A stretch of DNA of 13,230 nt, taken from assembly GCA_037147375.1 (NCBI GenBank), contig JBAWVI010000017.1, positions 1 to 13,230 of the forward strand, read 5' to 3'. The translations under genes and the position numbers were made by a program. Under the pieces are notes generated by a model. It was not told the origin of the DNA. It searched no databases and was given only the letters and a program-made list of their open reading frames with translations. The stretch's first letter is position 1. Every line of letters starts with the position of its first letter. Below, piece after piece: positions 1 to 13,230 of this stretch. Source of the DNA: an archaeon. GTDB lineage: Archaea; Iainarchaeota; Iainarchaeia; Iainarchaeales; CSSED10-239.

Positions 1-2530
1 TCTTATCTTTTGATTTTTCGCTTGATTGAACTTGCTTGAATACTTTTAAGATTTCAGCAGTATCTAAATTAAATTTAGCAATTACTGTTTTATCATGTGT
101 GTTAACTATATTATCAAGCTCGTATTCTGCTATTCTGTGCTTTAAGGAATCAATTTCTTTTTTTTGTTCCTTCCATTCCTTAAAAAAGTTACCTAAAGTT
201 TTAGCAAGCTCGCTCTTGTTTACACATAAAACATCTGATGAATTTTCAAGATGTTTTTCTTGCTCTCTAATATACTCAAGTGCTGATTTTTGAGTTGTGT
301 AAAATATTCTTTCAACTCCATCTTGAACACTTGTTCTTTTAATTATTTTAAAAATACCAATATCTTTAATATCATGTAAATGAAGACCAGCACATGCTTG
401 AACATCTATGTTTGGTATTTCAATTATGCTTAAATAGTTTCCTGGAATTGCTCCACCTTGGTAAAGCCTGAATCCATATCTCTTTTCAGCTTCATCTTTT
501 GGTAACTCAAAGATATTTACTTTACTTCCATCAAACACCCATTCATTAACTTGATCTTCAATTAAATCAAGTTCATCTTTTGTAATCGGTTTATAGTGTG
601 TAATATCAAGATGAGATTCAAGAACATCCTTGCTTGCTCCTGCTTGCCAGATGTGCTGACCAAGAACTTTCTTTGCAGCTGCATTTAGAAGATGTGCACC
701 TGTATGCATGCATCTTAATTGCTTTTGACGTGAATCATCAACTAAACAGATTACTGGATGTCCAACATTAATTGCTTTCTTTAAGTTTTCAATAAAATGA
801 AGAATCTTTCCTTCATAATTATAAACTTCTGTTACTTGATAAGCACCATTAATTGTTCCAAGATCAAATGTTTGTCCTCCACCTTCTGGATAGAAAACTG
901 TTTTATCAAGTACTATAAGTTTCTCTGATGCATAAAGAACCTTACTTGTGCATTCTGTTTTATTATCATAATATAATTTAATTGTGTTTGGAAGAAGCTT
1001 GATTGCTTCCTTATTTTCCTTTTCAAGAAGCTTTTGAATAACACTTATGTCCTTTGCAGCCTTCCCAGTTAAATTACTTTCAGCTATTGCTCCAAAGTAA
1101 TCTGCAGGAAGTTCTATTTTCTTATGAAGCTTTTCTGCTGCATCTTCAATTTGTTCCTTTGTTATTCCATCACTCTTGTACATTGTTACAAAATCTTTTG
1201 TATCGAGCTTCTTTCCAGATGAAAGAATGCTTGCAAGCTTACTAACAGCTTTATCCTTGTTTTGTAAATATTTTTTCTTTTCTTCGTCTAAGACATCACA
1301 AGCAGTCTTAAGTCCTTTTGATAAACTTGGATCAAAATCCTTAAGTGAATGAACATGCTCTTCAAATATTTTATTAAAATCAAGCTTGAAATCATGTGTC
1401 TGATCAATATCAAACAATCTTCTAGCAAGAATTCTCAAATTATATCCTCCACCAGAATTACTTGGCAAGAGACCATCAGTTCCTGTATAAAGTAAAGTCT
1501 TTGTGTGATCACAAACTGCATAAAGAGCATGAACAGGATCAAGTTTCTTGAATAATTCATCTCTTGACTGTCCAAGTTTCTTTGCAATAATTTCTTGAGA
1601 TTTTTTAAGGTCTGCTACTTCGTCTGCATTTAATTCTCCAGAGAGTTTATAAAATTCAGTTAATAACTTATCATCAAACTTAACTCCAGTATGTTTTTTT
1701 AAATACTTGAGTACATCTGCAAAAGTAATATCATAACTTGTTGGTGTTCCGTTTGTGTACCATGCAAGTCTTTCAAACCCAGCACCCATATCAATAACTG
1801 GTTTCTTTAATTGTTCATATTTTCCTTTACCCTGATCTTGATATTGCATGAAAACACAATTACCAAGCTCAACACCATTTGCAAAATATTCCATGCATGG
1901 TCCAAAGTATCCTCCACCTTCCCAAACATCTTCAAAGAAAACTAAATCATCTTCTTTAACTCCAATAACTTTAGTTAGATATTCATGGTCTAAAGAAAGA
2001 GCTTCTTCTTTCCAATAAGGTTTCTTTGGATCTGTGTTAAATGCGTGTTGACCAAACATAACAAAGGTTGTATAATGTGTTCCAGTAACTCCTACATTTG
2101 AAATATCTCCAAACCTAATAGATGTTTGTGGAACAATAAGTGGATCTGCAGGTGGTTTAACTTCTCCATTAACAACATATGGTTGAAAATCTATGATTGA
2201 TGCATTAGTAAAATATAAATCGTTTCTCCATCTTGGAATAACTGGATATCTTTTAATTGATTCATGTCCATTCTTCTTAAAGAACTTTTCAATTTCATGC
2301 CAAGTTTCTTGATAAGTATATCCTTTTGTTTTATGTCCAATAAAATCACGAGATTGACAACTAGATTCAGCACAATATTCTCTATTAGTGTTAGTCCAAA
2401 ATGGACGCTTACACTTTTTACAAATCTTTCTTTCATACCCTAAGTTAGTAAGAGCCTTAACCTTATAATGATCTTGCCAGTTCTTTTCAAACATTGGTCT
2501 AACTTGTTTTTTAAGTTCAGTTTCTGCCAT
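1..2530 (-). CDS. alaS: Alanyl-tRNA synthetase, archaeal type. The start is complete and the C-terminal end runs off the left edge of the window (843 codons visible).
   Basis: Absent from the supplied ORF track, presumably because it has no stop inside the window. I checked every minus-strand triplet of the frame starting at 2530 down to position 2 and found no stop. The frame is closed just upstream by TAG at 2543-2545. Translation starts MAETELKKQVRPMFEKNWQDHYKVKALTNLGYERKICKKCKRPFWT (archaeal AlaRS N-terminal Cys cluster). It continues through class II core segments (FTNASIIDFQPY, GPCMEYF, IDMGAGFERLAWY) and the editing-domain metal motifs HxxxH (MHTGAHLL) and CxxxH (CAGLH). Confidence 0.92.
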   Translation of the reverse strand, partial: MAETELKKQVRPMFEKNWQDHYKVKALTNLGYERKICKKCKRPFWTNTNREYCAESSCQSRDFIGHKTKGYTYQETWHEIEKFFKKNGHESIKRYPVIPRWRNDLYFTNASIIDFQPYVVNGEVKPPADPLIVPQTSIRFGDISNVGVTGTHYTTFVMFGQHAFNTDPKKPYWKEEALSLDHEYLTKVIGVKEDDLVFFEDVWEGGGYFGPCMEYFANGVELGNCVFMQYQDQGKGKYEQLKKPVIDMGAGFERLAWYTNGTPTSYDITFADVLKYLKKHTGVKFDDKLLTEFYKLSGELNADEVADLKKSQEIIAKKLGQSRDELFKKLDPVHALYAVCDHTKTLLYTGTDGLLPSNSGGGYNLRILARRLFDIDQTHDFKLDFNKIFEEHVHSLKDFDPSLSKGLKTACDVLDEEKKKYLQNKDKAVSKLASILSSGKKLDTKDFVTMYKSDGITKEQIEDAAEKLHKKIELPADYFGAIAESNLTGKAAKDISVIQKLLEKENKEAIKLLPNTIKLYYDNKTECTSKVLYASEKLIVLDKTVFYPEGGGQTFDLGTINGAYQVTEVYNYEGKILHFIENLKKAINVGHPVICLVDDSRQKQLRCMHTGAHLLNAAAKKVLGQHIWQAGASKDVLESHLDITHYKPITKDELDLIEDQVNEWVFDGSKVNIFELPKDEAEKRYGFRLYQGGAIPGNYLSIIEIPNIDVQACAGLHLHDIKDIGIFKIIKRTSVQDGVERIFYTTQKSALEYIREQEKHLENSSDVLCVNKSELAKTLGNFFKEWKEQKKEIDSLKHRIAEYELDNIVNTHDKTVIAKFNLDTAEILKVFKQVQSSEKSKDK

Positions 2531-2538
2531 AAATATCA

Positions 2539-2571
2539 ATACCTATAAATATATCGAACATACCTATAAAT
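2539..2571 (-). promoter_or_regulatory. Two copies of a 12-bp direct repeat (plus strand ATACCTATAAAT, minus strand ATTTATAGGTAT) spaced 21 bp apart just upstream of alaS. Candidate tandem TATA-box promoter elements.
   Basis: Exact repeat at 2539-2550 and 2560-2571. Read on the minus strand each contains TTTATA. The proximal copy ends 9 nt upstream of the alaS ATG (2530), so it sits close to the start codon. This would fit a short or absent leader. Confidence 0.35.
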
Positions 2572-2619
2572 TATACTTAATATATAAGATAAATAAGTAT
2601 TTAAAGATATATTTTAGGG

Positions 2620-3645
2620 TTAATCATATCTTATTGGCTTAGCTTTTACTTTCTTTCTTAATTTGTTTAATAGATACTCTTTGTTTTCATCTACAATTTG
2701 AGAAATTTCTTTTTTTCTTTCCATTAATAAATCATAAATGAAGATACTAAATTTATTATAATCTTTAGAATTTTGTAATCTTTCAAGAAGGTTAATATAC
2801 CTGTTTCTGTTATTAAGATTAATTATTACTCTAGGAAATCCATTATCCATAAGAATAAGATTAAGTAGTTCTCTTCCTGTTCTTCCATTTCCATCAGAAA
2901 AAGGATGAACACTTTCAAAGAAGATGTGTAGATAACTTGAAAGTTCGACAGGATAAACCTGGTCTTTATTATTTGAATAATAATCCATAAATTCATTCAT
3001 AAGTTCTTGAACCCTACTTGCATTAGGTGGGAGATAACTTGAACCAGTAAGATATACAGGCTCTGTTCTATATTTTCCTGGATGTTTCTCTTCAAATGTA
3101 TACAGAACTTCTTTATGAATATTTTTAATTAATTTTTCAGTTAATTTTTGTTTTTTTGAAAATATTTTCTGTTTAACGTTCTTTAAATTTATTATTTCTT
3201 GAATTTCGTATACTTGTTTTCCTTCAATTGCTATTCCTTTATCCATTACCAATGCAGTTTCCAATAATGATAAAGAATTTCCTTCAACTGATGCACTTCC
3301 TTGTGCAAATCTTACATATTCATCTTTATCAAAAGATTTAAATCCCTCTTTGAAATATCTTTTAAATAATAGATAATCATATCTTAGTTTTTCAAGTTCT
3401 ATTATTTCCATAGTGGATAATACTTCTGGTTTTCTTTTTTGAAGAACAATCTTTGATGCTTCAATCCCTATTTTATTTCTAAGATCAATAAATGCTTTAT
3501 CTAATGCTTCTTTTGATTTTGGGTCTGATAAGTACACACTTATCTTCCTTCTATCACCATATAAGTTGATAGTTTCCTCAAGATAATAATATTTTTTATC
3601 AGAAATAATTCTTTTGTTTATGAACACAATGTAATTAACCCTCAA
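2620..3645 (-). CDS. Fic-domain protein (Fic-1) with the canonical AMPylase-type motif and an N-terminal inhibitory-helix motif.
   Basis: 341 aa ORF. Core Fic motif HPFSDGNGRTGR matches HxFx(D/E)GNGRxxR. The upstream segment SASVEGN matches the (S/T)xxxE(G/N) auto-inhibitory motif of class II Fic proteins. The annotated start is TTG at 3645. A GTG at 3627 is an alternative, and there is no ATG in the first ~78 codons. Confidence 0.85.
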   Translation of the reverse strand: MRVNYIVFINKRIISDKKYYYLEETINLYGDRRKISVYLSDPKSKEALDKAFIDLRNKIGIEASKIVLQKRKPEVLSTMEIIELEKLRYDYLLFKRYFKEGFKSFDKDEYVRFAQGSASVEGNSLSLLETALVMDKGIAIEGKQVYEIQEIINLKNVKQKIFSKKQKLTEKLIKNIHKEVLYTFEEKHPGKYRTEPVYLTGSSYLPPNASRVQELMNEFMDYYSNNKDQVYPVELSSYLHIFFESVHPFSDGNGRTGRELLNLILMDNGFPRVIINLNNRNRYINLLERLQNSKDYNKFSIFIYDLLMERKKEISQIVDENKEYLLNKLRKKVKAKPIRYD

Positions 3646-3688
3646 AATGTTTAAAAATAGATGTTTTTAGATAATTGAGGGTTAATTA
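3632..3688. promoter_or_regulatory. Perfect 14-bp inverted repeat (TAATTAACCCTCAA, 29-nt spacer, TTGAGGGTTAATTA) spanning the Fic-1 start codon and upstream region.
   Basis: Arms at 3632-3645 and 3675-3688 are exact reverse complements. The spacer is AT-rich with a TATA-like run (minus strand CTATTTTTAAACA). The proximal arm contains the TTG start and the first four codons of Fic-1. The element begins 16 nt after the stop of the upstream Cys-rich gene. Confidence 0.5.
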
Positions 3689-3703
3689 ATTTTAAATTAA
3701 TAA

Positions 3704-4042
3704 TTATATATTACCAGGAACTGTAAGTAAAGGTTCACATTTATTATTTACACAATTAATTCCTTGCAATTCCATGCAACTATAAACACAACCTTTTATC
3801 CCTCCATTGTACTTAGATATCAGGCTACTTATCCTTATTTCTTCATTTTTATTTATTAATATAGAACACCCAAATGGGCATGAGGGCCCTACAGATATAC
3901 AGTCCTCTTTTACAGAACAATAGTTTGCTTTGATGATTTCTTTACTAACTTGTTTCTCTGTTGGACTAAATTTATATAAGATAAACCCTATGCTTAAAAC
4001 AAGGATTGTTACTATTAATAAAATAATAAATTTTTTCTTCAT
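3704..4042 (-). CDS. Small membrane-anchored 8-Cys protein, paralog 1 of 4 (P1), unknown function.
   Basis: 112 aa. MKKK followed by a ~20-residue hydrophobic segment, then the scaffold C-x5-C-x6-CPFGC-x25-C-x3-C-x7-C-x4-C. GGAG Shine-Dalgarno-like sequence (AAGGAGAGAGAATT) directly before the ATG. Conserved with three neighbouring paralogs. Confidence 0.8.
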   Translation of the reverse strand: MKKKFIILLIVTILVLSIGFILYKFSPTEKQVSKEIIKANYCSVKEDCISVGPSCPFGCSILINKNEEIRISSLISKYNGGIKGCVYSCMELQGINCVNNKCEPLLTVPGNI

Positions 4043-4067
4043 AATTCTCTCTCCTTTATTATTATAA

Positions 4068-4391
4068 TTAATCCAAATTCCAAATACATTTTCCAGTTAT
4101 ACACCCAAAATTTTTTATTGGTCCGCAATCATAAGCACAACCCTCATTATTTACATAATAGCGTGTAATTAATTTTTGTATTCTTGTTTCTTCATTTTTA
4201 TTAATTAATATATTACATCCAAATGGGCAAGCACCTAATTTTGCACTACAATCCTCTTTTACAGAACAATAGTTTGCTTTGATTATTTCTTTATTAATTT
4301 GCTTTTCTGTTGGACTAAATGCGTATAGGATAAATCCTATAATTAAAATAAGGATAGTCGCAATTAACACAAAAATAAATTTCTTTTTCAT
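4068..4391 (-). CDS. Small membrane-anchored 8-Cys protein, paralog 2 of 4 (P2), unknown function.
   Basis: 107 aa with the same architecture and Cys spacing as P1. About 58 of the first 78 residues are identical to P1 by my hand alignment, and the C-terminal third diverges. AAGGAGAT lies upstream of the ATG. Only 25 nt separate it from P1. Confidence 0.8.
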   Translation of the reverse strand: MKKKFIFVLIATILILIIGFILYAFSPTEKQINKEIIKANYCSVKEDCSAKLGACPFGCNILINKNEETRIQKLITRYYVNNEGCAYDCGPIKNFGCITGKCIWNLD

Positions 4392-4420
4392 TTTATTTCA
4401 CTATCTCCTTAACCTTGTTT

Positions 4421-4438
4421 ATATCCACAAGAACTTCT
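4421..4438 (-). repeat. Shortest remnant of the hisS 3' end (18-bp core), between P3 and P2.
   Basis: ATATCCACAAGAACTTCT matches hisS 6407-6424 at 17 of 18 positions. A further fragment, ATTTCACT at 4395-4402, may correspond to CTTTCACT of hisS, with the P2 Shine-Dalgarno sequence inserted between them. The flanking sequence 4439-4465 parallels 4879-4905. Confidence 0.6.
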
Positions 4439-4464
4439 AATTAATAGTTAATAGATTATTTAAC

Positions 4465-4797
4465 CTAATTTTGAGGAACACACTTATTATCTACACAAGC
4501 TATACCTTTTAACTGAAGACAGTTATAAACACAAGTACTAAAACTAAGTTTGTTTTTATGGTATTCAGAAATAAGGTCACGTATTCTTGTTTCTTCATTT
4601 TTATTTATTAATATCGTACATCCAAATGGACAAGATCCACCTATATGTGTACAATCATCTGATATGGAACAAAAATTTGCATTTTTTATTTCCTGATTTA
4701 CTTTTTTTTCTGATGGACCTGTACAAAATAAAAATATTAAAACACCAATTATAATAACTATTGTTGCGATTAACAAAAATACACATTTCTTTTTCAT
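4465..4797 (-). CDS. Small membrane-anchored 8-Cys protein, paralog 3 of 4 (P3), unknown function.
   Basis: 110 aa. C-x5-C-x6-CPFGC-x28-C-x3-C-x7-C-x4-C. AAGGAGAATAAGT lies before the ATG. It ends at TAG where P4 has TGG, and both then read GTT AAA TAA. Confidence 0.8.
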   Translation of the reverse strand: MKKKCVFLLIATIVIIIGVLIFLFCTGPSEKKVNQEIKNANFCSISDDCTHIGGSCPFGCTILINKNEETRIRDLISEYHKNKLSFSTCVYNCLQLKGIACVDNKCVPQN

Positions 4798-4844
4798 ACT
4801 TATTCTCCTTTTAATTTTTATAAATCTTTATTATTATTTATTAC

Positions 4845-4878
4845 ATCTTTCACTTTATCAATATCTACAAGAATTTCT
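4845..4878 (-). repeat. Remnant copy of the 3' end of hisS (about 34 bp), between P4 and P3.
   Basis: 4845-4878 matches 6391-6424 at 32 of 34 positions (ATCTTTCACTTTATC.ATATCTACAAGAA.TTCT). Confidence 0.8.
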
Positions 4879-4895
4879 AATTGATGATTAATACA

Positions 4896-5252
4896 TTATT
4901 TAACCCAATGTTGAGGAACGCATTTATTATCTACACAATTTATACTTTTAAACTGAGGACGGTCATAAACAGGACAATCATAAACACAAGTACTAAGACT
5001 AAGTTTATTTTTATGATATTCAAAAATCAGATCACGTATTCTTGTTTCTTCATTTTTATTTATTAATATTGTACATCCAAATGGACAAGATCCATCTATC
5101 TGTAGACAATCATCTGATATGAAACAAAAATTTGCATTTTTTATTTCTTGATTCACTCTTTTTTCTGATGGACCTGTACAAAATAAAAATATTAAAACAC
5201 TAATTATAATAACTATAACAGCAATTAGTAAAAATACACATTTCTTTTTCAT
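4896..5252 (-). CDS. Small membrane-anchored 8-Cys protein, paralog 4 of 4 (P4), unknown function.
   Basis: 118 aa. 83 of the first 93 residues are identical to P3 by hand alignment. The loop between Cys6 and Cys7 is 12 residues (PVYDRPQFKSIN) against 7 in P1-P3. AAGGGAGATAAATT lies before the ATG. Confidence 0.8.
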   Translation of the reverse strand: MKKKCVFLLIAVIVIIISVLIFLFCTGPSEKRVNQEIKNANFCFISDDCLQIDGSCPFGCTILINKNEETRIRDLIFEYHKNKLSLSTCVYDCPVYDRPQFKSINCVDNKCVPQHWVK

Positions 5253-5298
5253 AATTTATCTCCCTTAAATTTTTATTGATAATTTTTATTATTTATTA

Positions 5299-5360
5299 TA
5301 TCTTTCACTTTATCAATAGACACAAGAACTTCTTCTCCACTCTTCATGTTCTTTATTTGT
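5299..5360 (-). repeat. Remnant copy of the 3' end of hisS (longest copy, about 62 bp), between Fic-2 and P4.
   Basis: A hand alignment of 5299-5360 against 6390-6451 gives 52 of 62 identical positions. Translated on the minus strand it reads IKNMKSGEEVLVSIDKVKDI, against the HisRS C-terminus IKNMKSGEEVLVDIDKVKDILK. It overlaps the Fic-2 stop codon (5353-5355). Confidence 0.85.
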
Positions 5361-6294
5361 TTATAAAATATTTTACTTGTCCTAAATATTGTTTATAACT
5401 AAATTCAGCAAATTCTTTTGGATTATTTTTTTCTACAGCACTAATTAATGATTTAAAATACTCTCCTTTTTTATCTGAAATATTTAACATTGGAAAGTTA
5501 GAATCAACCAATACTTTATTAAAAATTAATCTACAAATTCTTTTATTTCCATCAAGAAAAGGATGTATCATATATAACTTATAATGAGAGATAACTGCTT
5601 TTTCAAGTGGATTCAATTCAGTTGTATTATACCAATCAACAAAATTAATTAATTGCTTAGTGATATCTATATAATTTGGAGGTTGATAATTAAGTTCTCT
5701 TCCAAGAGGATGTTTTTGATCTGTTTGGATCAAATGAACTGGTCTTACTCTAAACATACCTGGTGTTTTTGTCTCAAACTCAGCCATTGTTGTTCTGTGT
5801 AATTTTTTTAAAAAATCAATTGTTAACTCTATATTACTATTTGAAACAAGGTTAACTGCATCAATCATATTCTTACAAATAATTTCTTCCCTACTTAAAT
5901 TAGATTTATTTTTATATGCATTTTTTACATCTTGAATATTTATATCTACATCTTCTGTTGTTAGTGTGGTTAAGGTAAATAAGATTATAGAATCTATTTT
6001 AAACTGCTTCTGCTTAATAGGGGATAAGGTATTATATTTTTTTATAAAAAAATTTCTTAAAATTATGGTTTTAATCACATCTTCTAAATTATACAGATTA
6101 GATGTATAATGTTCTTGAGAAACCTTGTAAATCACGTTATCATAAAAAGTTAATATTAGTTTTTTAAGTTCATTAGAAGATGGTTTTTTAAGTCCTATAT
6201 ATTTACTAAAATGAACTTGTTTATCTAAAACCCTAAATTTTAATTCTAAGTAATAATATATTTTATTATTTACTTTCTTAACATCTAATTTCAT
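5353..6294 (-). CDS. Fic-domain protein (Fic-2), a divergent paralog of Fic-1 with a Doc-like NKR variant of the core motif.
   Basis: 313 aa. Core motif HPFLDGNKRICR has Lys in place of the second Gly. The N-terminal KIYYYLE segment and the TPGMFR segment align with KKYYYLEE and HPGKYR of Fic-1. The position equivalent to the inhibitory motif reads TLTTED (Glu kept, G/N replaced by Asp). Confidence 0.8.
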   Translation of the reverse strand: MKLDVKKVNNKIYYYLELKFRVLDKQVHFSKYIGLKKPSSNELKKLILTFYDNVIYKVSQEHYTSNLYNLEDVIKTIILRNFFIKKYNTLSPIKQKQFKIDSIILFTLTTLTTEDVDINIQDVKNAYKNKSNLSREEIICKNMIDAVNLVSNSNIELTIDFLKKLHRTTMAEFETKTPGMFRVRPVHLIQTDQKHPLGRELNYQPPNYIDITKQLINFVDWYNTTELNPLEKAVISHYKLYMIHPFLDGNKRICRLIFNKVLVDSNFPMLNISDKKGEYFKSLISAVEKNNPKEFAEFSYKQYLGQVKYFINK

Positions 6295-6299
6295 AGATA

Positions 6300-6375
6300 A
6301 TTAGGGCAACAAACAGTTTATAAAATGTTGCCCTAATACTTAGGGCAACAAATTAATTTACAAAAGATGCCCTAA
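6300..6375. promoter_or_regulatory. Pair of inverted repeats built from four TTAGGGCA half-sites between the hisS stop and the Fic-2 start. Candidate operator/promoter for Fic-2, terminator for hisS, or both.
   Basis: IR1 is ATTAGGGCAACA (6300-6311), a 14-nt spacer, then TGTTGCCCTAAT (6326-6337), perfect over 12 bp. Its spacer contains TTTATAAAA. IR2 is TTAGGGCA (6340-6347), a 20-nt spacer, then TGCCCTAA (6368-6375). The 13-nt direct repeat TTAGGGCAACAAA occurs at 6301 and at 6340. IR1 ends 6 nt from the Fic-2 ATG, and its TATA-like spacer is centred about 25-30 nt upstream of that ATG. Confidence 0.5.
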
Positions 6376-6378
6376 ATT

Positions 6379-7677
6379 TTATTTTAGAATATCTTTCACT
6401 TTATCTATATCTACAAGAACTTCTTCTCCGGACTTCATGTTCTTGATCTTTATCTTATTTTGCTTAACTTCATCTTCACCTAAGAGACCAACAAATGGAA
6501 TTTCTGACTTATTTGCGAAATCCATGTTCTTTCCAATTGCTCTTCCTAAGAGATCTACCATAGTTTTTATTCCTTGGCTTCTTAGTGTTTGTGTTATCTC
6601 TATTGCTTGCTTCTCTGTTTTAATTGGAATAATATAAAGATCAGCTGTTGTTTCCTTAACCATTCCATCTCTTGCTTTAATTATCTCCATAATTGGCTCA
6701 AGTCCAAATGCAACTCCAACTGCAGGATAAACCCTATTCTCATCTTTTAGATATTTACCTATCATCTTATCCCATCTTCCACCACCAGCAATTGAAACTG
6801 GAAGAATAGATTCTTCTTTTAAGAAAACTTCAAAGATTGGGCCTGTATAATATCCAAGACCTCTTGCAAGGGAAGGAAGGAAAACATATTCTGTATTAAA
6901 TTTATTTAGATAATTAAAAAGTTCAGTTAATTCTTTTATTCCATCTGTTTCTCCTATAACTTTTTTAATATTATTTAGCTTTTCTTGATTGTTTCCTTTA
7001 ACTAAAAGAATATCAAGAATCTTATTTATCTTATCCTCTGATATTTCTTTTTCAAGAAGTTCTTTAGTTACTCCAACTCTACCAACCTTCTTTAGCTTAT
7101 CAATTGTAATAATTGTTGTTGTTTGATAATCTTCTGGAATTTCTACAAAACTTAGAATATCTGAAAGAAGTTTTCTTGAAGAAACTTCTATGTTTACATC
7201 AAGCTTAAGTTCTTTAAACACATCTGAGACAAGAGCTAGTATTTCTGCATCTGCAATCATTCCGCTTGCACCAACAGTGTCCACATCACACTGGTAGAAC
7301 TCTCTATATCTCCCTGCTTTTATAGGTCCATCACGAAAAACAGGGCCTATCTGATATCTTTTAAATGGTAATCTAGTTTGAGGGTTCATTCCTATGTATC
7401 TTGCTAGAGCAAATGTAAACTCATATCTTAACCCCAAATCTCTATCTCCTTGGTCTTTAAATCTATATATTTCAGAGATAGCATCGCTAGCTTCTCCAGC
7501 TCCAAACTTAGCTTCCAAGATATCTAATCTTTCAACAGTTGGAGTCTCAAGAGGAGAGAAAGCATATATTTCAAAAACATTCTTTATCTTTGCAATAACA
7601 TAATCTCTAAGTATTTTTTCAGCAGGAGAGAAATCTCTAAATCCTTTAGCTAAATCAAGTTCAAAATCTTTTTCCAT
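6379..7677 (-). CDS. hisS: Histidyl-tRNA synthetase.
   Basis: 432 aa. Class II motif 2 region FRDGPIKAGRYREFYQCDVD, the HisRS-specific LARGLGYYTGPIFE, and a C-terminal anticodon-binding domain (DLYIIPI...GIKTMVDL...IPFVGLLGEDE). Confidence 0.93.
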   Translation of the reverse strand: MEKDFELDLAKGFRDFSPAEKILRDYVIAKIKNVFEIYAFSPLETPTVERLDILEAKFGAGEASDAISEIYRFKDQGDRDLGLRYEFTFALARYIGMNPQTRLPFKRYQIGPVFRDGPIKAGRYREFYQCDVDTVGASGMIADAEILALVSDVFKELKLDVNIEVSSRKLLSDILSFVEIPEDYQTTTIITIDKLKKVGRVGVTKELLEKEISEDKINKILDILLVKGNNQEKLNNIKKVIGETDGIKELTELFNYLNKFNTEYVFLPSLARGLGYYTGPIFEVFLKEESILPVSIAGGGRWDKMIGKYLKDENRVYPAVGVAFGLEPIMEIIKARDGMVKETTADLYIIPIKTEKQAIEITQTLRSQGIKTMVDLLGRAIGKNMDFANKSEIPFVGLLGEDEVKQNKIKIKNMKSGEEVLVDIDKVKDILK

Positions 7678-7743
7678 AATTTAATTCATCTCTTTTATCT
7701 TATTTATTTAGGTTATAAAAACAATTAAAAACCATTGTTTTAA

Positions 7744-7817
7744 GGGTCCGAACCGGGATTCGAACCCGGGTCCTAAGATCCACAGTCTTAGATGCTAACC
7801 ACTACACAACTCGGACC
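7744..7817 (-). tRNA. tRNA-His (anticodon GUG) with genome-encoded G-1.
   Basis: The minus strand folds by hand into a cloverleaf. G-1, then acceptor GTCCGAG/TTCGGAC, D stem GTGT/GCAT with a GG loop, anticodon stem TAAGA/TCTTA with loop CTGTGGA (GTG), T arm CCGGG-TTCGAAT-CCCGG, and C73 opposite G-1. No encoded CCA. Confidence 0.9.
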
Positions 7818-7832
7818 ATTAGTATTAACTAT

Positions 7833-7952
7833 TTAATTTGTTATTACCACCTTATCATTATCTACTCTGATAGATACGTTATCAAAGAAACCTAACGATT
7901 TTCTAACAGAAGATGGTATTGTTATTCTATTCTTGGAATCAACAACGATGGG
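7833..7952 (-). pseudogene. Second AbrB/SpoVT-like domain in the +1 frame relative to 7939-8094, with no start codon of its own. Indicates a frame-disrupted or recoded double-AbrB gene.
   Basis: The frame opens after TAG (7953-7955) and reads PIVVDSKNRITIPSSVRKSLGFFDNVSIRVDNDKVVITN, then stop. The VDSKNRITIP segment repeats the AbrB signature. There is no ATG, GTG or TTG before the motif and no Shine-Dalgarno sequence. It overlaps the end of the upstream ORF by 14 nt. Confidence 0.5.
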
Positions 7953-8094
7953 CTAATCTATAATTAGTTGATATAATTAACTTAGAATTAATTAAATCAA
8001 AATCGTAACTTAAACTAGAGTTATCTTTAAACAAGTTAATTATTTGTTTTGATAATCTAATTCTTCCTTTATCATCAATCTTTGTTTGTTCCAT
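7939..8094 (-). CDS. AbrB/SpoVT-type (swapped-hairpin) DNA-binding domain protein, 51 aa as it stands. It appears to be the first half of a two-domain gene.
   Basis: MEQTKIDDKGRIRLSKQIINLFKDNSSLSYDFDLINSKLIISTNYRLAHRC. The xDxKGRIxLxKxI signature is typical of AbrB/MazE/SpoVT domains. AAAGGAGTG lies 12 nt upstream of the ATG. Too short for the supplied ORF track. Confidence 0.6.
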   Translation of the reverse strand: MEQTKIDDKGRIRLSKQIINLFKDNSSLSYDFDLINSKLIISTNYRLAHRC

Positions 8095-8173
8095 AAATTA
8101 AATTCACTCCTTTTTATTGGAATTATAAATAATTTATGAAACAAAGGTTTTAAAAGAATTGGTGGGAAATAAA

Positions 8174-9397
8174 TTAACCAAAGAATATTGGTCTTTGGCT
8201 AATTAACTTTGATACTGGTAGTGAACGATATGGCATACCATTACAAATTTTTTTTATTTCCTTTTCTAATTCTTCTTTTCCCATTTCTTTTTTAATTCCG
8301 TTTTCTCTTACGTTTACCATATATTTTCCAGAAGATATTTCTTTATCTCCAATCACAATAACATACGGCACCCACTCCTTGCTTGCTTTAACAATTTTCT
8401 TTCCAAGACTATCCTCACTATCATCCAAATCATATCTAATCCCTTCTAAATGAATAGATTTGCAATAATCAACTTGAGCTTGAGACACAGGTATGATTCT
8501 AACTTGAGAAGGGCATAACCAAAGTGGTAACACTGGTTTTTCTTTTTTTAAGGATTCTTCAAATATTGAATACATCCATCTTTCAATACTTCCAATACTT
8601 GAATGGCAGATAATACATCCTTTCTTGCTACCATCATTATCCACATAGTTAATTCCATATATTCCTGCATCTTTAATATCCAATTGAACAGATGATAGTT
8701 GCAAGTTACCTCCAACACTATCTATTCCTTGGAATTCATGCTTAACAACCCAATAGTGCTTCATATCAGATAATAGTTCTATGAAAGCTGGCTTATTAGA
8801 ATATTTAACTAATTCTAATATCTTGTTTTTATGCTCGTTATAAAAGCTTTCAACAACTCTAAAGACAATAGCATATTTTACTCCTACTTCATTAGCAAGA
8901 TCTGAATAATTTCTATAAAGATTTTGATATTCGTCCCATCCTTCTTCTACATCCTTACAAAAACTATGAATGTCTGGCATATGAAATGATCTTAGTCTCT
9001 TAAGTCCAGATAGTTCACCATGCTTTTCATACCTAAAGCTTTTTGAAAACTCATAAACTCTTATTGGAAGCATTTTATAACTAAAGTTTGCATCTTGCAT
9101 AATCTTAAATAAACCAAAATCTCCTGCAAATCTTAAGATATATTTTTCATTATCATTATCAGGCACCTTTACAATATAATGTCTCTCATGAAATGATCCA
9201 GCTTGCTCTTGAATTTCTTTATCATTCCAGTTATATATTATTGGAGAATCAATTTGTAAAGATTTCAATCTATTTACTGCAATCTCATATGCCCAATCTT
9301 TTAATAAATCAAAAATCAACTTTCCTTTTGGATACATTCTAAAATGCCCAGAATCACTTGAAGATTCATAATCAACTAATTCATGTTGTTGCATCAT
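8174..9397 (-). CDS. thrS: Threonyl-tRNA synthetase, archaeal type: catalytic core plus anticodon-binding domain (the main body of a disrupted gene).
   Basis: 407 aa. HELVDYESSSDSGHFRMYPKG, FRYEKHGELSGLKRLRSFHMPDIH (class II motif 2 region), CHSSIGSIERWMYS (motif 3 region), and C-terminal PLWLCPSQVRIIPVS...VPYVIVIGDKE (anticodon-binding domain). This frame is open upstream to 9433 and there reads RDNLEKHPPSIKMM, with no earlier start codon and no Shine-Dalgarno sequence. Confidence 0.9.
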   Translation of the reverse strand: MMQQHELVDYESSSDSGHFRMYPKGKLIFDLLKDWAYEIAVNRLKSLQIDSPIIYNWNDKEIQEQAGSFHERHYIVKVPDNDNEKYILRFAGDFGLFKIMQDANFSYKMLPIRVYEFSKSFRYEKHGELSGLKRLRSFHMPDIHSFCKDVEEGWDEYQNLYRNYSDLANEVGVKYAIVFRVVESFYNEHKNKILELVKYSNKPAFIELLSDMKHYWVVKHEFQGIDSVGGNLQLSSVQLDIKDAGIYGINYVDNDGSKKGCIICHSSIGSIERWMYSIFEESLKKEKPVLPLWLCPSQVRIIPVSQAQVDYCKSIHLEGIRYDLDDSEDSLGKKIVKASKEWVPYVIVIGDKEISSGKYMVNVRENGIKKEMGKEELEKEIKKICNGMPYRSLPVSKLISQRPIFFG

Positions 9398-9398
9398 T

Positions 9399-9599
9399 TT
9401 AATTGAAGGTGGGTGCTTCTCTAGGTTGTCCCTTTATTTCCTCTGATAAAATATATGCTTTAAGTTCAGGATTATTAATCTTTGCTAGATCTTCTTTATT
9501 ATCTTTATTAAATTCCATCTCTGACCCATCAGGACTTAAAATAATTGATTTATGCATTACACTTTTATTTATTTCATCTCTATTTTTTATTGAATTCAT
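9399..9599 (-). CDS. thrS: N-terminal 66-codon segment of thrS, in a different frame from the body (a +1 shift is needed to join them).
   Basis: A strong Shine-Dalgarno sequence (AAGGAGAGATAAATT) lies directly before ATG 9599. The ORF ends at TAA, one nt before the ATGATG of the 407-aa ORF. Together they would give about 470 aa, the size of an editing-domain-less ThrRS. Confidence 0.65.
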   Translation of the reverse strand: MNSIKNRDEINKSVMHKSIILSPDGSEMEFNKDNKEDLAKINNPELKAYILSEEIKGQPREAPTFN

Positions 9600-9967
9600 A
9601 ATTTATCTCTCCTTAATTTTTATTTTCTTGTTTTTTTTGTTTATTTATATAAAATATATTGATATCTAATCTTTATAATATTAGATTAGGTAACTTACTT
9701 CTCATTTTAGGATTATTTACAAAAATAAAGATTACCAGTCTCTTAATGAAAATAATTATTTCTAATGGTAAGATAGGCCTTTAGAAATGAACTAGAGAAG
9801 TAATATTTAATTGGTTGTGGTGATACTTAAAGAAACAGATATGAGTTTATTTATTTTATTATTAATTTTAAATCTCATTTTATATCACCTTTAGTTTATA
9901 CTAATATTATGTAAAGATTAGTTTTTAAATATTATGAACTTGAACTGTCCAAGATATATAACAAACT

Positions 9968-10189
9968 CTATTTTAAATACTCTAAAAATTCTTCTTTTGT
10001 AAGCTTAGAAACTTTAATAATCTGTAAAACAGTTCCAATCTTTAAAACTTTGTGATTTGGAACAACAATTAAATCCCCTTCTTGATTTTTAAGAATAATA
10101 TGACTGCCTTTTTGTCTAATTATATGATAATCTAATTTATTTAATACAAAAAGTATATCCTTTACAGATATATTCTTTAATTCAGACAT
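9968..10189 (-). CDS. hicA: HicA-family toxin (mRNA interferase).
   Basis: 73 aa. RQKGSHIILKN...VVPNHKVLKIGTVLQIIK matches the HicA signature (GSH ... P.H ... GT...I.K). Its start overlaps the stop of the upstream hicB by 8 nt (AATGTCTGA). Confidence 0.85.
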   Translation of the reverse strand: MSELKNISVKDILFVLNKLDYHIIRQKGSHIILKNQEGDLIVVPNHKVLKIGTVLQIIKVSKLTKEEFLEYLK

Positions 10190-10415
10190 TAATAGGCACT
10201 TCTGTTTGTTCTAAATAAACTGAAGATAACAATTCTTTTAATTTTTCTTTATCAATTTCATTGATGTACAAATCTATAGCTTCTGTAATGTTTTGCATTG
10301 CTTCTTCTTTAGTATCGCCTTGTGATATACATCCTGGTAATTGAGGAACATAAACTGTATATCCACCTTCTATCTGTTTTTCAAAAATTACATCTATCTT
10401 CATAACATCACACAT
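10182..10415 (-). CDS. hicB: HicB-family antitoxin (UPF0150-like, N-terminal domain only).
   Basis: FEKQIEGGYTVYVPQLPGCISQGDTKEEAMQNITEAIDLYI is the typical HicB partial RNase H-like fold signature. The start is either ATG 10415 or ATG 10403 (MKIDVIF...). There is no appended RHH/HTH domain. Confidence 0.8.
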   Translation of the reverse strand: MCDVMKIDVIFEKQIEGGYTVYVPQLPGCISQGDTKEEAMQNITEAIDLYINEIDKEKLKELLSSVYLEQTEVPINV

Positions 10416-10454
10416 ATAATAGGTATAGATAGTTATTAAATTATATCCATTAAA

Positions 10455-11471
10455 CTATTTTTGTAAATTTTCAAGTATTTCTTTCATTCTTTCTATTGTT
10501 TTTATACTTTCTTTTCCTTGCTTGTATCTCTTTAGATACTTCTTGTATCTTGTTTTTACTTCTTTAATTCCTGCTTCTCTAATTACCTTATCATTTGTAA
10601 TTGCTTTCTTAACTATGTTTATTCCCATGTCCGTTGGAGACTTATAGTTTCGCATAGAATTATTCTTTGAAACAATCTTTGAAATAAGTTTACTTAAGAT
10701 TTTGTAATTTTCAATATCTCTATTATAATTAATTGCACTTATTCCATATGCACGTTTATGATATGGATCAACCATATTAATATCTTGAATATCAGCAGTT
10801 GCTGCTTCATAAGCAACATTAACTGGATGCTTAAGAGGAAGATTCCAAATTGGAAATGTTTCAAACTTAAAATATCCTGAATTAATATTATGTTTAGTAT
10901 CTAAGAATACTTGAGATAAGCACACACCCATTTTTCCTGCATTTGAAAAAGCTCCAGTAACAATTATTATTTTTCTTTCAAGCTTAATATATGGTTGCTT
11001 ATTGTATCCATCTTTACCAAGTATTTCTTTTAAATCTTCTGGATAGTTTTTTATTGGAGTACCTTCATAAACCTTAAAACCTTCTTTTTCTAAAAGTTTT
11101 TTGAAAGCTTTAATCTTATTTTGGTTTTCAACTCTTGTTATCATTACTCCAGCAATCTTAAACCCTCTTTTTCTTAACTCTTTAATTTCTTCTAAAAATA
11201 AGTTTTGCATTTCTTTATTACTATTATAATCCTTAATTGCAGAGAAAAGATATTTATAATATATACAATAAATTACTTCTGAATTATCTTTAATTTTTTC
11301 AAGAATCTTCATCTTATTATCTTTATGATATCCAGGAAGAACACGAGATGCATGATAGTCTTTTAGAATGTGCCCACCAACTTCTAGATAAACTCTATCA
11401 AACTTATTTGCACGTTCGTTAATTACATTAACTTCAAGCTCAATGTACTTTTTAGAATCAAATCCAATCAT
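10455..11471 (-). CDS. DUF1846 / UPF0371 family protein, short form.
   Basis: 338 aa. MIGFDSKKYIELE...YLEVGGHILKDYHASRVLPGY and GYFKFETFPIWNLPLKHPVNVAYEAATADIQDINMVDPYH...NYNRDIENY...YKSPTDMGIN match conserved blocks of UPF0371 proteins as I recall them. Confidence 0.7.
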   Translation of the reverse strand: MIGFDSKKYIELEVNVINERANKFDRVYLEVGGHILKDYHASRVLPGYHKDNKMKILEKIKDNSEVIYCIYYKYLFSAIKDYNSNKEMQNLFLEEIKELRKRGFKIAGVMITRVENQNKIKAFKKLLEKEGFKVYEGTPIKNYPEDLKEILGKDGYNKQPYIKLERKIIIVTGAFSNAGKMGVCLSQVFLDTKHNINSGYFKFETFPIWNLPLKHPVNVAYEAATADIQDINMVDPYHKRAYGISAINYNRDIENYKILSKLISKIVSKNNSMRNYKSPTDMGINIVKKAITNDKVIREAGIKEVKTRYKKYLKRYKQGKESIKTIERMKEILENLQK

Positions 11472-11568
11472 AATTTATCACTGCATAAGTTTATGATATA
11501 ACAATAAGTAGGTTAGATTTAAAAAGAAAATGGTTTACTAAAAACGTCCAAGAAATATAGCAGATATT

Positions 11569-11605
11569 TAAAAAAAGAAAATGTTCGGGAAAGAACATCT
11601 TTCCC
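11569..11605 (-). terminator. Hairpin plus T-tract downstream of the HU-like gene.
   Basis: The minus strand reads GGGAAAGA-TGT-TCTTTCCC (8-bp stem, 3-nt loop, 11587-11605), followed by GAACATTTTCTTTTTTTAAAT. It starts 33 nt after the HU stop. Confidence 0.55.
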
Positions 11606-11637
11606 TAAAAAGCATTTATTTGGTTATTCAAAAAAAC

Positions 11638-11910
11638 TTATAACATCTTTTTGAATTCTTTTCCAGACTTGAAAGCAACCTTCTTTCCTGCTGCTATCTT
11701 TAATGCCTTACCTGTTTGTGGGTTTCTTCCAACTCTTGCTTTTGTCTTTCTAACTATGAAAGTTCCAAAACCAATTAACTGAAGTTTTCCTTTAGTCTTA
11801 ACTATTGTCTTGATTGAATCAAGTGTTAAGTCAACTACTCTTTTAATTTCAGCCTTTGAGTACTTTGGTAATTTCTTACCCATTGTTGCTATTAAAAATT
11901 CTTTATTCAT
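11638..11910 (-). CDS. HU/IHF-family (bacterial histone-like) DNA-binding protein.
   Basis: 90 aa. LIGFGTFIVRKTKARVGRNPQTGKALKIAAGKKVAFKSGKEFK is the classic HU beta-arm signature (GFG.F....R.AR.GRNP.TGE.I.I.A......F..G). GGGGG Shine-Dalgarno-like sequence upstream. Confidence 0.9.
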   Translation of the reverse strand: MNKEFLIATMGKKLPKYSKAEIKRVVDLTLDSIKTIVKTKGKLQLIGFGTFIVRKTKARVGRNPQTGKALKIAAGKKVAFKSGKEFKKML

Positions 11911-12046
11911 TTTATTTTCCCCCTTATAGTTTTTTTATATGAATAAAATATATATATTAAAATATATATCTAATAGTTTTTAAATAGATATGTTGATTTC
12001 TTCAGGTAAAATCAAGGCTTAAGAGGATATTAGATAAAAATAAGTA

Positions 12047-12120
12047 TGGACCTATCGGGATTTGAACCCGAGTCGCAAGCTCCGCAAGCTTACATGCTAT
12101 CCAGGCTACACCATAGATCC
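12047..12120 (-). tRNA. tRNA-Arg (anticodon GCG).
   Basis: Hand-folded cloverleaf. Acceptor GGATCTA/TAGGTCC (one G-U pair), D stem GTGT/GCAT, anticodon stem TAAGC/GCTTG with loop TTGCGGA (GCG), T arm TCGGG-TTCAAAT-CCCGA, discriminator A. No encoded CCA. Confidence 0.88.
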
Positions 12121-12210
12121 AAGCTATAAATATTAAGAAACAAGATGTTTATAAAGATTATTAAATGCTTAAAACATAAAAGAAAAGCTTATTCTCTTGA
12201 AAGAATATAA

Positions 12211-12555
12211 TTATTTCCCACCAAGCTTTGCAGTTCCCCAAGTTAATACAGACATCATTCCAAATCCAAGGAATAAATATACCATCATTAAGCTTGATGT
12301 TACGTACAAATACTTCCATACTAAAAAATAGATAAGTACGAGTGTAATAATATAGGTGAGTACCCCACCACCAATTGCGTTTTCAACAGTTTCATATATG
12401 AAAAAACACACTATAAATGCAACAATATAACGTGCTAATGGAAATGCAGCCATAACAAGTGGAACAACGAGGACTGCACAGATAATAACTATTACAATTT
12501 TTAAAAGAAGAGATTGAATCTTAAATAATCCAAATATAAAACCCTTATCATCCAT
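12211..12555 (-). CDS. Small integral membrane protein (about 4 hydrophobic segments), unknown function.
   Basis: 114 aa, almost entirely hydrophobic helices. GAGG lies upstream of the ATG. Confidence 0.6.
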   Translation of the reverse strand: MDDKGFIFGLFKIQSLLLKIVIVIICAVLVVPLVMAAFPLARYIVAFIVCFFIYETVENAIGGGVLTYIITLVLIYFLVWKYLYVTSSLMMVYLFLGFGMMSVLTWGTAKLGGK

Positions 12556-12605
12556 TCTTTTTTCCTCAAAATATTTAATTTATTATTTCTTTACTTGTTA
12601 TTTAT

Positions 12606-12992
12606 TTAATGCCCTGGCATGAACGGCATACGTGGTCTATGTCCACCATGACTTTTATGAGCAAGATGTTGTTGATGTTCAATATGTTCACTTGCATGCA
12701 ATTCATCCTTCATTTGCATTGCTTCTTCTCCACCACCATGACCCATAGTAACAAAGAACATATCAACTAATACTGATGTGATACCAATAGTTAGTATAAC
12801 ATATACTAAATACGTAGCTCTAAAAAATGGCCACCATAAGAAAACCATACCAATAATAGCTATAGATATAAATAAAAGTGATAATGTATTATGAGTAATC
12901 TTTTGTCTAACAAAAGCTATAACAGTTAAGACAAAGAATATCTTAATTACAAAATCAAAATCTGTTAGAAAATTTAATATAAATATATCCAT
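12606..12992 (-). CDS. Small membrane protein with a His/Met-rich C-terminal tail, unknown function.
   Basis: 128 aa with three hydrophobic segments. The tail reads HGGGEEAMQMKDELHASEHIEHQQHLAHKSHGGHRPRMPFMPGH (11 His in 44 residues). No obvious Shine-Dalgarno sequence. An AT-rich TATA-like run lies about 20-30 nt upstream of the ATG. Confidence 0.6.
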   Translation of the reverse strand: MDIFILNFLTDFDFVIKIFFVLTVIAFVRQKITHNTLSLLFISIAIIGMVFLWWPFFRATYLVYVILTIGITSVLVDMFFVTMGHGGGEEAMQMKDELHASEHIEHQQHLAHKSHGGHRPRMPFMPGH

Positions 12993-13047
12993 AATTATCT
13001 GATATTATATTAAAACAAAAGATATAAAAAGAGTTGGGAAAGGGAAA

Positions 13048-13230
13048 CTATTCAATAGGCACATTCCCTTCTGTACAATCATCTTTGTAAGTTCCAGCAT
13101 TAGCAATTATCTCAGTAATCCTACTACCATTAATATCTACTTTATCTGAAACCCATTTAATATATGTTGAATTTGCTCCATTATAAACACAAGCATTTCC
13201 GTTTTCAATTTCTTTGAAAAGATCTTGTAT
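13048..13230 (-). CDS. C-terminal 60 codons of an unidentified protein whose start lies beyond the right edge.
   Basis: Open minus-strand frame from 13230 to TAG at 13048-13050, reading IQDLFKEIENGNACVYNGANSTYIKWVSDKVDINGSRITEIIANAGTYKDDCTEGNVPIE. Not in the ORF track because it is edge-truncated. No family recognised. Confidence 0.45.
   Translation of the reverse strand: MQDLFKEIENGNACVYNGANSTYIKWVSDKVDINGSRITEIIANAGTYKDDCTEGNVPIE

Follow-up and report, generated by a model that had tools for sequence, protein, structure and literature searches.

Four tandem genes in an iainarchaeon encode a widespread, unannotated eight-cysteine domain with a predicted membrane anchor

We analysed a 13,230-nucleotide (nt) stretch of DNA from an archaeon of the Iainarchaeota (contig JBAWVI010000017.1, positions 1 to 13,230, assembly GCA_037147375.1; hereafter the window), which carries an array of four related genes on its minus strand at 3704-5252. 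The four open reading frames (ORFs), P1 to P4, lie exactly where an earlier note, made by a model from the letters of the DNA, had placed them. As read from the ORFs and their alignment, the proteins share one architecture: MKKK, a transmembrane anchor and a domain with eight cysteines. P1 (3704..4042, 112 amino acids (aa)) has a C-terminal part that resembles the family consensus described below, and P2 (4068..4391, 107 aa) has the most diverged C-terminal quarter (CGPIKNFGCITGKCIW). P3 (4465..4797, 110 aa) is nearest to the single ortholog in a related contig, L001, and P4 (4896..5252, 118 aa) carries a 5-residue insertion that extends its Cys6-Cys7 loop to 12 residues. The alignment confirmed the features that the note had listed as common to all four, in that MKKK, a hydrophobic stretch of ~20 residues, the eight cysteines and the CPFGC.ILINKNEE block are invariant, and the cysteines are spaced C-x5-C-x6-C-x3-C-x25/28-C-x3-C-x7/12-C-x4-C. 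The identity counts were also reproduced exactly, with 83 of the first 93 residues identical between P3 and P4 and 58 of the first 78 between P1 and P2.

P1-P4 are real genes. The P1 ATG has an AAGGAG-like Shine-Dalgarno motif just 5' of it, within a few nt, and similar motifs were found 5' of the ATG of each of the four; the spacer between P1 and P2 is no longer than 25 nt. A second assembly (L003) matches 2801 nt of the array at 100% identity, and the GC content of the region is 22-28%. Rfam and tRNA scans of both strands revealed no RNA gene within 3704-5252. Matches to a sigma-70-like promoter model, which is not applicable to an archaeon, were at background (27 vs 24±5 expected).

The four proteins belong to a large family whose members are all named 'hypothetical protein' in their source records, with no Pfam or NCBIfam assignment for this domain. 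None of P1-P4 had a match above threshold in Pfam, NCBIfam or PADLOC. A word-indexed homolog search returned 3 proteins with a window protein as query, namely the window's own proteins and one ortholog only, and 10 with a profile, so that an exhaustive search was needed to reveal the family. Using a four-sequence profile, an exhaustive HMMER search yielded 975 cluster representatives at E<=1e-3 and 274 at <=1e-10; each represents a cluster at 50% identity, and 975 is a lower bound for the family. The eight-cysteine spacing was retained in 147 of the 152 top family matches, which places the pattern of P1-P4 far beyond chance. Its commonest form is 5-6-3-22-3-7-4, and all four paralogs follow the family spacing C-x5-C-x6(-8)-C-x3-C-x22..30-C-x3-C-x7(-12)-C-x4-C. 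A family hidden Markov model (HMM) built without the paralogs scored P1 at 95.2, P2 at 88.9, P3 at 96.3 and P4 at 85.3 bits, with E values of 1e-28 to 1e-31 that come from a small search.

The eight cysteines are invariant in both family alignments (62 and 76 members), and the proline of CPFGC is at least 90% conserved in both. In the 76-member alignment, the same level of conservation was reached by the alanine of ANYC, the aspartate of DC, the phenylalanine and glycine of CPFGC, the asparagine of VNK and the tyrosine of C-x-Y-x-C. The loop between Cys6 and Cys7 has 7 residues in 164 of 215 family domains and 12 residues in 2. The 'new-looking scaffold' of the earlier note is therefore unannotated, as no match was obtained in Pfam, NCBIfam, PDB sequences or Foldseek, but it is not private to four paralogs, since its clusters extend across archaea and bacteria.

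To find where the domain occurs, one genome per GTDB species was scanned with a degenerate DNA pattern for D-C-x6-CPFGC-x3-[V/I]-N-K. This gave 64 loci, of which 62 were confirmed family members. The archaea among them are Woese-, Pace-, Nano-, Aenigm- and Iainarchaeota, and the Patescibacteria are Peregrini-, Sacchari- and Absconditabacteria and Parcubacteria. Other bacteria are Bdellovibrionota, Myxococcota, Gammaproteobacteria, Chloroflexi, Omnitrophota, Planctomycetes and Binatia. The scan, which is biased, shows an apparent enrichment in DPANN archaea, the candidate phyla radiation (CPR) and predatory lineages. A phage origin was rejected, as neither 50,697 phage records (tblastn) nor the IMG/VR viral contigs (DNA pattern) contained a family match. 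A literature search returned nothing relevant on 'CPFGC' or on secreted cysteine-rich proteins of DPANN archaea or Patescibacteria.

Two groups of sequences within the search results deserve separate mention. A 10-cysteine subfamily of ~105 aa (L037 1850-2170, P0167, P0222, P0236) shows 57-77% identity between metagenome-assembled genomes labelled Patescibacteria/Parcubacteria and those labelled Nanoarchaeia/Woesearchaeota, which implies either recent inter-domain transfer or mis-binning. P0006 (564 aa) consists of nine near-identical repeats in which …CSNLQGSCPFGCR… is all that is present of the domain, embedded in basic sequence of low complexity; P0006 probably represents either a DNA repeat that was wrongly translated or an unrelated repeat protein whose match is due to CPFGC.

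Structure prediction with AlphaFold2 gave a confident model for P3 residues 28-110 from the 62-sequence domain alignment (predicted local distance difference test (pLDDT) 91.8, predicted template-modelling score (pTM) 0.81). The predicted order is a helix (3-12), a strand (22-24), the CPFGC turn, a second strand (36-38) and a long helix (39-55). These are followed by an irregular segment with Cys5 and Cys6, where confidence is lowest (about 80), and a beta-hairpin that holds Cys7 and Cys8 (71-75, 78-82). Full-length P4 (pLDDT 89.1, pTM 0.72) was modelled with a transmembrane helix at residues 3-24 and then the same order of secondary structure. Its least confident part is residues 81-100 (pLDDT 67-73), comprising the linker, Cys5/Cys6 and the 5-residue insertion. 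We rejected an internal duplication, which the 'symmetric 2 x (C…C-x3-C…C)' layout described earlier might suggest, as the order helix-strand-strand-helix-strand-strand has no two-fold repeat. At thresholds of E<=1e-3 and a template-modelling score of at least 0.5, Foldseek found no match in the PDB (best E 0.86, score at most 0.33) or among the viral folds of BFVD (best E 0.3, score at most 0.37). The family profile likewise had 0 matches to PDB sequences at E<=10. It is thus reasonably, though not absolutely, firm for the predicted model that the 83-residue domain has no fold neighbour.

Export signals are a near-constant feature of the family. A simple heuristic recognised a lipobox or a hydrophobic N-terminus directly ahead of the domain in 200 of 212 members. 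The remaining 12 are mostly fragments or have a lipobox that can be seen by eye but escaped the heuristic, so that about 94-98% of members carry Sec, lipoprotein or transmembrane export signals; a general twin-arginine motif was not found among them. Bacterial members typically show …L-x-A-C/GPSE…, a lipoprotein signal, and CPR and DPANN members mostly MKK followed by a transmembrane helix. Membrane anchoring through the hydrophobic segment listed in the earlier note is thus supported. MKK(K) followed by a transmembrane helix would, under the positive-inside rule, leave the domain outside the cell, and P1-P4 are probably small type-II membrane-anchored extracytoplasmic proteins. P3 and P4 possibly carry a lipid anchor: compared with the lipobox pattern [LVI][ASTVI][GAS]C that ends a lipoprotein signal peptide, both read LFLFC/TGPSE, with a cysteine that aligns to the bacterial lipobox cysteine (…AC/GPSE), but with phenylalanine at -1. 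In P3 this additional cysteine lies 17 residues ahead of Cys1. P1 and P2 have no cysteine at the lipobox position.

We next consider how the paralogs have evolved. By Nei-Gojobori estimates of non-synonymous (dN) and synonymous (dS) divergence, whole-gene omega (dN/dS) was 0.18-0.53 for comparisons among P1-P4 and with the ortholog. Between the same two genomes omega was 0.19 for the histidyl-tRNA synthetase (HisRS) gene and 0.17 for the Fic gene next to P1 (Fic1), and this similarity shows that P1-P4 are constrained, functional genes. The earlier note had stated that the differences within each pair concentrate after Cys5. This was clear for P1/P2, with 70% against 30% of positions differing (Fisher p=0.001), and marginal for P3/P4, at 27% against 10% (p=0.07), where P4 has its 5-residue insertion in addition. 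No such concentration was seen when P1 was compared with P3 or P4 (41-48% vs 46-52%). The codon-level comparison that the note had proposed was similarly divided. The part of P1/P2 after Cys5 was the sole region with omega above 1 (dN 1.05, dS 0.59, omega 1.8), on 12.5 synonymous sites, and it was not distinguishable from neutrality (binomial p=0.67). For P3/P4, omega was 0.46 after Cys5 vs 0.24 over the stretch from 14 residues ahead of Cys1 up to Cys5. For P3 and the ortholog the corresponding values were 0.22 vs 0.26, with no excess.

The variable positions of the paralogs are those that vary throughout the family. Columns with more distinct residues across the four paralogs also tended to have a higher family-wide entropy (Spearman 0.70, p=8e-13). 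The conserved N-terminal half and the variable part after Cys5, as first noticed in P1-P4, recurred as the same gradient among 74 close homologs that form an independent subfamily (0.66 bits for Cys1-Cys4, 1.03 for Cys4-Cys5, 1.51 for Cys5 to the end and 1.86 for the transmembrane segment). Divergence along the protein is hence not uniform, as the earlier note expected, but the variable columns follow a family-wide pattern of constraint. Scored against the family HMM, the C-terminal parts of P1 (25 bits), P3 and the ortholog were consensus-like (25-27 bits), and those of P2 (20 bits) and P4 (19-20 bits) were derived; genuine additional divergence at the C-terminus is confined to P2 and P4. On the simplest reading of these comparisons, the C-terminal hairpin and loop would be the least constrained surface of the domain family-wide, and P2 and P4 would have drifted, or possibly adapted, in their C-terminal part after duplication.

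The same data bear on the proposal, made when the array was first noticed, that it forms a recognition, adhesion or decoy surface with a hypervariable C-terminal loop under diversifying selection, such as an episymbiotic DPANN archaeon might use to attach to host cells. We regard this as unlikely, though not negligible. It draws on the concentration of differences after Cys5 in P1/P2 and marginally in P3/P4, on the C-terminal omega of about 1.8 in P1/P2 and on the 12-residue loop of P4, which is rare. The over-representation of pattern matches in DPANN, CPR and predatory bacteria and the four-gene array itself, which is unusual in that 0 of 62 other loci have two members, also speak for it. 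However, whole-gene omega is below 1, the single value above 1 comes from 12.5 synonymous sites and does not depart from neutrality, and P3 shows no C-terminal excess against its ortholog. Furthermore, P1, P3 and the ortholog are consensus-like towards the C-terminus, the loop has 7 residues in most of the family, and the variable columns vary family-wide and in an unrelated subfamily of single-copy homologs. Diversifying selection on the loop is therefore not demonstrated; some positive selection on the C-terminal part of P1/P2 is possible.

The chemistry of the eight cysteines could be that of disulfides or of metal sites. From Cys1 to the C-terminus, 92 sequences have 8 cysteines, 17 have 9 and 31 have 10, and in the 9-cysteine sequences inspected the tenth lies upstream of Cys1. 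A cysteine at Cys6+3 co-occurs with one at Cys8+3..6 in 32 of 34 cases (Fisher p=1e-23), and one at Cys5-3 with a cysteine 13-22 residues ahead of Cys1 in 27 of 28 (p=3e-12); the extra pairs come from two independent subfamilies. As additional cysteines are gained only in pairs, a disulfide core is the better-supported chemistry, and tetrahedral metal sites do not explain such paired gain. When the 62 members were compared with Pfam at E<=10, only sub-threshold matches were obtained, and those that recurred were exclusively to disulfide-rich families (Nodulin_late 28, WAP 9, CarbpepA_inh 5). The motifs present are Cx5C, Cx3C and Cx4C; there are no CxxC knuckles and no conserved histidine, and neither the CxxCxxCxxxCP motif of ferredoxins nor other features of a zinc ribbon, zinc finger or ferredoxin were present. 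From these sequence patterns, it is highly probable that the domain contains four disulfides.

The alternative, raised in the earlier note as two metal ions bound by the symmetric layout, is that the eight cysteines make up one or two sites for Zn, Cu or Fe in an extracytoplasmic metal-binding, storage or sensing module. The eight invariant cysteines do include two CxxxC pairs, many of the hosts are anaerobes, one member adjoins FeoB and an iron-dependent repressor, and 1 of 62 members has a weak zf-Tim10_DDP match. Against this, the paired gains are strict at two independent positions, CxxC knuckles and a conserved histidine are missing, the recurrent weak Pfam similarities point to disulfide-rich families, and the FeoB neighbourhood is not conserved. 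The Sec, lipoprotein or transmembrane type of export seen in nearly all members, without a general twin-arginine motif, in addition argues against a pre-assembled Fe-S cofactor. Together, export and paired gains disfavour metal sites, which we strongly doubt.

The DNA between the genes records how the array was built. The intact HisRS gene (6379..7677, minus strand; ORF with Pfam tRNA-synt_His/HGTP_anticodon) is the source of duplicated 3' fragments that lie on the minus strand upstream of three of the four genes. Directly upstream of the P2 start codon is a remnant (…EVLVDINKVKEIVK*) at 4393..4438 that matches the last 46 nt of HisRS at 36 of 46 nt. Upstream of P3, the remnant at 4834..4878 has 40 of 46 nt identical to the HisRS end. 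The longest remnant (~90 nt, 5289..5378) lies upstream of P4 and matches 72 of 91 nt against nt 36-122 of the last 122 of HisRS. A repeat search returned a 42-nt element (family D6) upstream of the same three genes, P2, P3 and P4. In L001, the layout is HisRS, a single eight-cysteine gene, Fic and alanyl-tRNA synthetase (AlaRS), and the HisRS stop is followed by an AAGGAAG motif and then directly by the eight-cysteine gene. The remnants and this layout identify the duplication unit as the last 45-90 nt of HisRS plus the eight-cysteine gene, repeated at least three times. The array thus arose by local tandem duplication.

Synonymous divergence was 0.28 for P3/P4 and 0.34 for P3 and the ortholog, both close to the 0.32 of HisRS between the two genomes. 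For P1/P2 and all cross-pair comparisons it was near saturation, at about 0.8-1.2. Two member genes within 8 kb of each other were seen at none of the 62 other loci, and the amplification is therefore specific to this lineage. The HisRS scars make a clean, datable case of the building of a tandem gene array in a streamlined archaeal genome. A further difference was seen at the start of the single gene in L001 (788-805), which reads ATGAAAAAAAATGTG vs ATGAAAAAGAAATGT in the window. There, a longer unbroken A-run places the ATG out of frame, and the annotated start is a GTG that lies five codons inward. This could be a homopolymer assembly error or slipped-strand on/off variation.

Two Fic genes on the same strand bracket the array. 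Judged by the motif HxFx(D/E)GNGRxxR, Fic1 (2620..3645, minus strand; a 341-aa ORF, called as 335 aa) is canonical (HPFSDGNGRTGR; Pfam Fic 1.6e-21, PADLOC SoFic 3.5e-35). Fic2 (5353..6294, minus strand, 313 aa) has a degenerate active-site motif (HPFLDGNKRICR; Pfam Fic 9.7e-18, PADLOC SoFic 1.9e-24). An SxxxEG motif of the in-cis inhibitory type (SASVEG) can be read in the Fic1 sequence, and the Fic1 ortholog in L001 is 84% identical. Fic2 is absent from L001, and its last codons and stop fall inside the HisRS remnant upstream of P4, which suggests a later insertion or rearrangement.

Gene context outside the window does not point to a partner. In an all-vs-all BLAST that covered up to 3 genes per side at about 65 loci, no neighbour family recurred at more than 4 loci. 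The families shared by up to 4 were of close relatives or ABC-type components, and an operon partner, Fic included, was rejected on this basis. Other members lie near a Na/H exchanger with FeoB or near an ABC transporter. In 52 longer members the domain is fused to heterogeneous, mostly unannotated regions, and the Pfam domains among these are sporadic, in one member each (DUF4382, DUF333, Gmad2, esterase, Big_14). One architecture is recurrent: an unannotated polytopic membrane region of ~200 aa followed by a C-terminal eight-cysteine domain (P0038, P0057, P0096, P0121, P0128, P0133 and L023 2569-3297; motif …HGWPHFYL.H.IKD..DG.LI.KW.F…). This architecture may be a functional lead for the family. 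The domain is a promiscuous extracytoplasmic module, often membrane-proximal.

A joint function of the eight-cysteine genes and the flanking SoFic-like genes appears very improbable; the former might, for example, act as partner, target or sensor in a module for defence or toxicity that occupies a variable HisRS-AlaRS island. The bracketing by two genes that match PADLOC SoFic, the adjacency of an eight-cysteine gene to Fic1 that is kept in L001, and a Fic-like gene two genes away from one patescibacterial member (L023) speak for such a link. However, about 60 of the 62 GTDB loci, as well as L005 and L011, have no Fic gene nearby, and P1-P4 have no PADLOC match. Moreover, the eight-cysteine proteins are extracytoplasmic whereas the Fic1 and Fic2 sequences lack an N-terminal hydrophobic signal, and Fic1 carries its own inhibitory motif in cis. 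Finally, that P1-P4 are spurious frames in AT-rich repeated DNA, as their lack of annotation and a low GC content that lets long ORFs arise easily might suggest, is effectively refuted by omega far below 1, hundreds of homologs with invariant cysteines in two domains of life, Shine-Dalgarno-like motifs ahead of each ATG and a confident fold prediction.

Taken as a whole, the results are probably best explained by a membrane-anchored, disulfide-stapled extracytoplasmic domain that was tandemly amplified and kept by purifying selection. Each protein would display one copy of this unannotated, widespread domain of ~75 residues. After Sec export it would fold as a helix, two short strands around the CPFGC turn, a long helix, the irregular Cys5/Cys6 segment and a beta-hairpin with Cys7 and Cys8, stapled by four disulfides. 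The conserved N-terminal half (A-N-Y-C, D-C, C-P-F-G-C, V/I-N-K-x-E, I..L…Y) would form the structural core and probably a conserved interaction face, and the Cys6-Cys7 loop, the hairpin tip and the C-terminal tail would be weakly constrained surface. The gene multiplied through successive tandem duplications in which the last 45-90 nt of HisRS were copied together with the eight-cysteine gene. Purifying selection has since maintained the copies, with the C-terminal quarters of P2 and P4 relaxed or altered. We infer the disulfide connectivity, the meaning of the differences between paralogs and a role of the domain as a stable cell-surface binding or structural module, alone or membrane-proximal in larger surface proteins.

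Several observations weigh against this explanation. P1, 25 nt after P2, has no HisRS remnant, and P4 has one although Fic2 separates it from HisRS, so at least one further rearrangement must have taken place and the history goes beyond a simple series. Many host lineages are anaerobes, in which extracytoplasmic disulfide formation is not guaranteed. In the C-terminal part of P1/P2, where omega is about 1.8, synonymous and non-synonymous changes occur in a different proportion than in the remainder of the gene (Fisher p=0.002). The family has no conserved gene neighbour and no consistent fused domain, and a binding or structural role is an inference by exclusion. A bolder interpretation would take the domain as an undescribed disulfide-stapled fold that serves as a host- or prey-interaction module of DPANN, CPR, Bdellovibrionota and Myxococcota, exchanged between archaea and bacteria. 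The array would then be an adaptive expansion in which positive selection for binding specificity reshaped the C-terminal hairpin and loop of P2 and P4. We consider this decidedly unlikely.

The membrane-anchored, probably disulfide-stapled domain resembles several known systems in part. Like the WAP 'four-disulfide core' (PF00095) and other four-disulfide modules, it is a small extracellular eight-cysteine domain with four putative disulfides, a rigid core and a variable exposed loop, and 9 of 62 members match WAP weakly (best E 5.8e-4). These matches are, however, sub-threshold and limited to a minority, the cysteine spacing and the helix-rich predicted fold differ, and the family is prokaryotic, N-terminally membrane-anchored and without a Foldseek match to any PDB structure. 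Late nodulins and nodule-specific cysteine-rich (NCR) peptides (PF07127) are likewise secreted and cysteine-rich with a C-x5-(D)C type motif, and they are the most frequent weak match (28 of 62, best E 0.002). These matches are sub-threshold too, and NCR peptides are plant-specific, with 4-6 cysteines in about 30-50 residues; the likeness is limited to a short cysteine-spacing motif and is not evidence of homology.

The Cys3-x3-Cys4 and Cys5-x3-Cys6 pairs that flank the long helix recall the stapled helical hairpins of twin Cx3C proteins (small Tims, PF02953). In small Tims the spacer between the Cx3C motifs is 11-16 residues, whereas here it is 22-28 with four further invariant cysteines; 1 of 62 members matches (E 0.02), and compartment and taxa differ. 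Many bacterial members, finally, resemble small single-domain lipoproteins in having a canonical lipobox (LVAC/GPSE) directly ahead of the domain, and P3 and P4 keep the homologous cysteine. P1, P2 and most CPR and DPANN members instead have an uncleaved-looking transmembrane anchor, and no sequence or fold relation to any named NCBIfam or Pfam lipoprotein family was found. What is new is thus the family and a predicted fold without a recognised neighbour; the class of small disulfide-rich extracytoplasmic domains is known.

With at least 975 clusters in two domains of life and a prominent place in DPANN and CPR, this large unnamed family is a candidate for a Pfam entry. No aspect of the biology of ultra-small episymbionts is understood less well than their surface proteins, and an ectodomain that is conserved, compact and easy to express lends itself to structure determination and to screens for ligands. 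The idea of an arms race, which gave the finding its appeal, is not established, and nothing in the results would strongly surprise a specialist.

The rest of the window includes genes for aminoacyl-tRNA synthetases. The AlaRS gene (1-2548, minus strand, >847 aa, start MAETELKK) runs off the window start, which is why no long ORF is listed there. A tRNA-His (GTG) gene at 7744-7816 lies directly upstream of the HisRS gene on the same strand, and a tRNA-Arg (GCG) gene lies at 12046-12121. A ThrRS-like ORF of 407 aa (8174-9599, start MMQQHELVDY…) seems too short to include the N-terminal editing domain, and a separate 66-aa ORF (9399-9599) stops 2 nt short of it. Only short products are entered for this region in the public gene table of the contig, which may mean that the gene is split or frameshifted or that it was annotated as a pseudogene. 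Among the AlaRS, HisRS and ThrRS genes lie a HicA/HicB toxin-antitoxin pair (9968-10415) and a 51-aa ORF (7939-8094, MEQTKIDDKGRIRLSKQI…) that looks AbrB/SpoVT-like. This housekeeping cluster has gathered accessory and defence-type insertions.

Between the HisRS stop and the Fic2 start, at 6297-6374, are two tandem 39-nt units, whose motif has no other occurrence in the window. The palindrome TAGGGCAAC…GTTGCCCTA is present in each unit, so that there are four arms in all, and the predicted fold has an energy of -30.4 kcal/mol (z = -5.7). The central hairpin, at 6326-6350, has an intrinsic-terminator-like score on both strands.

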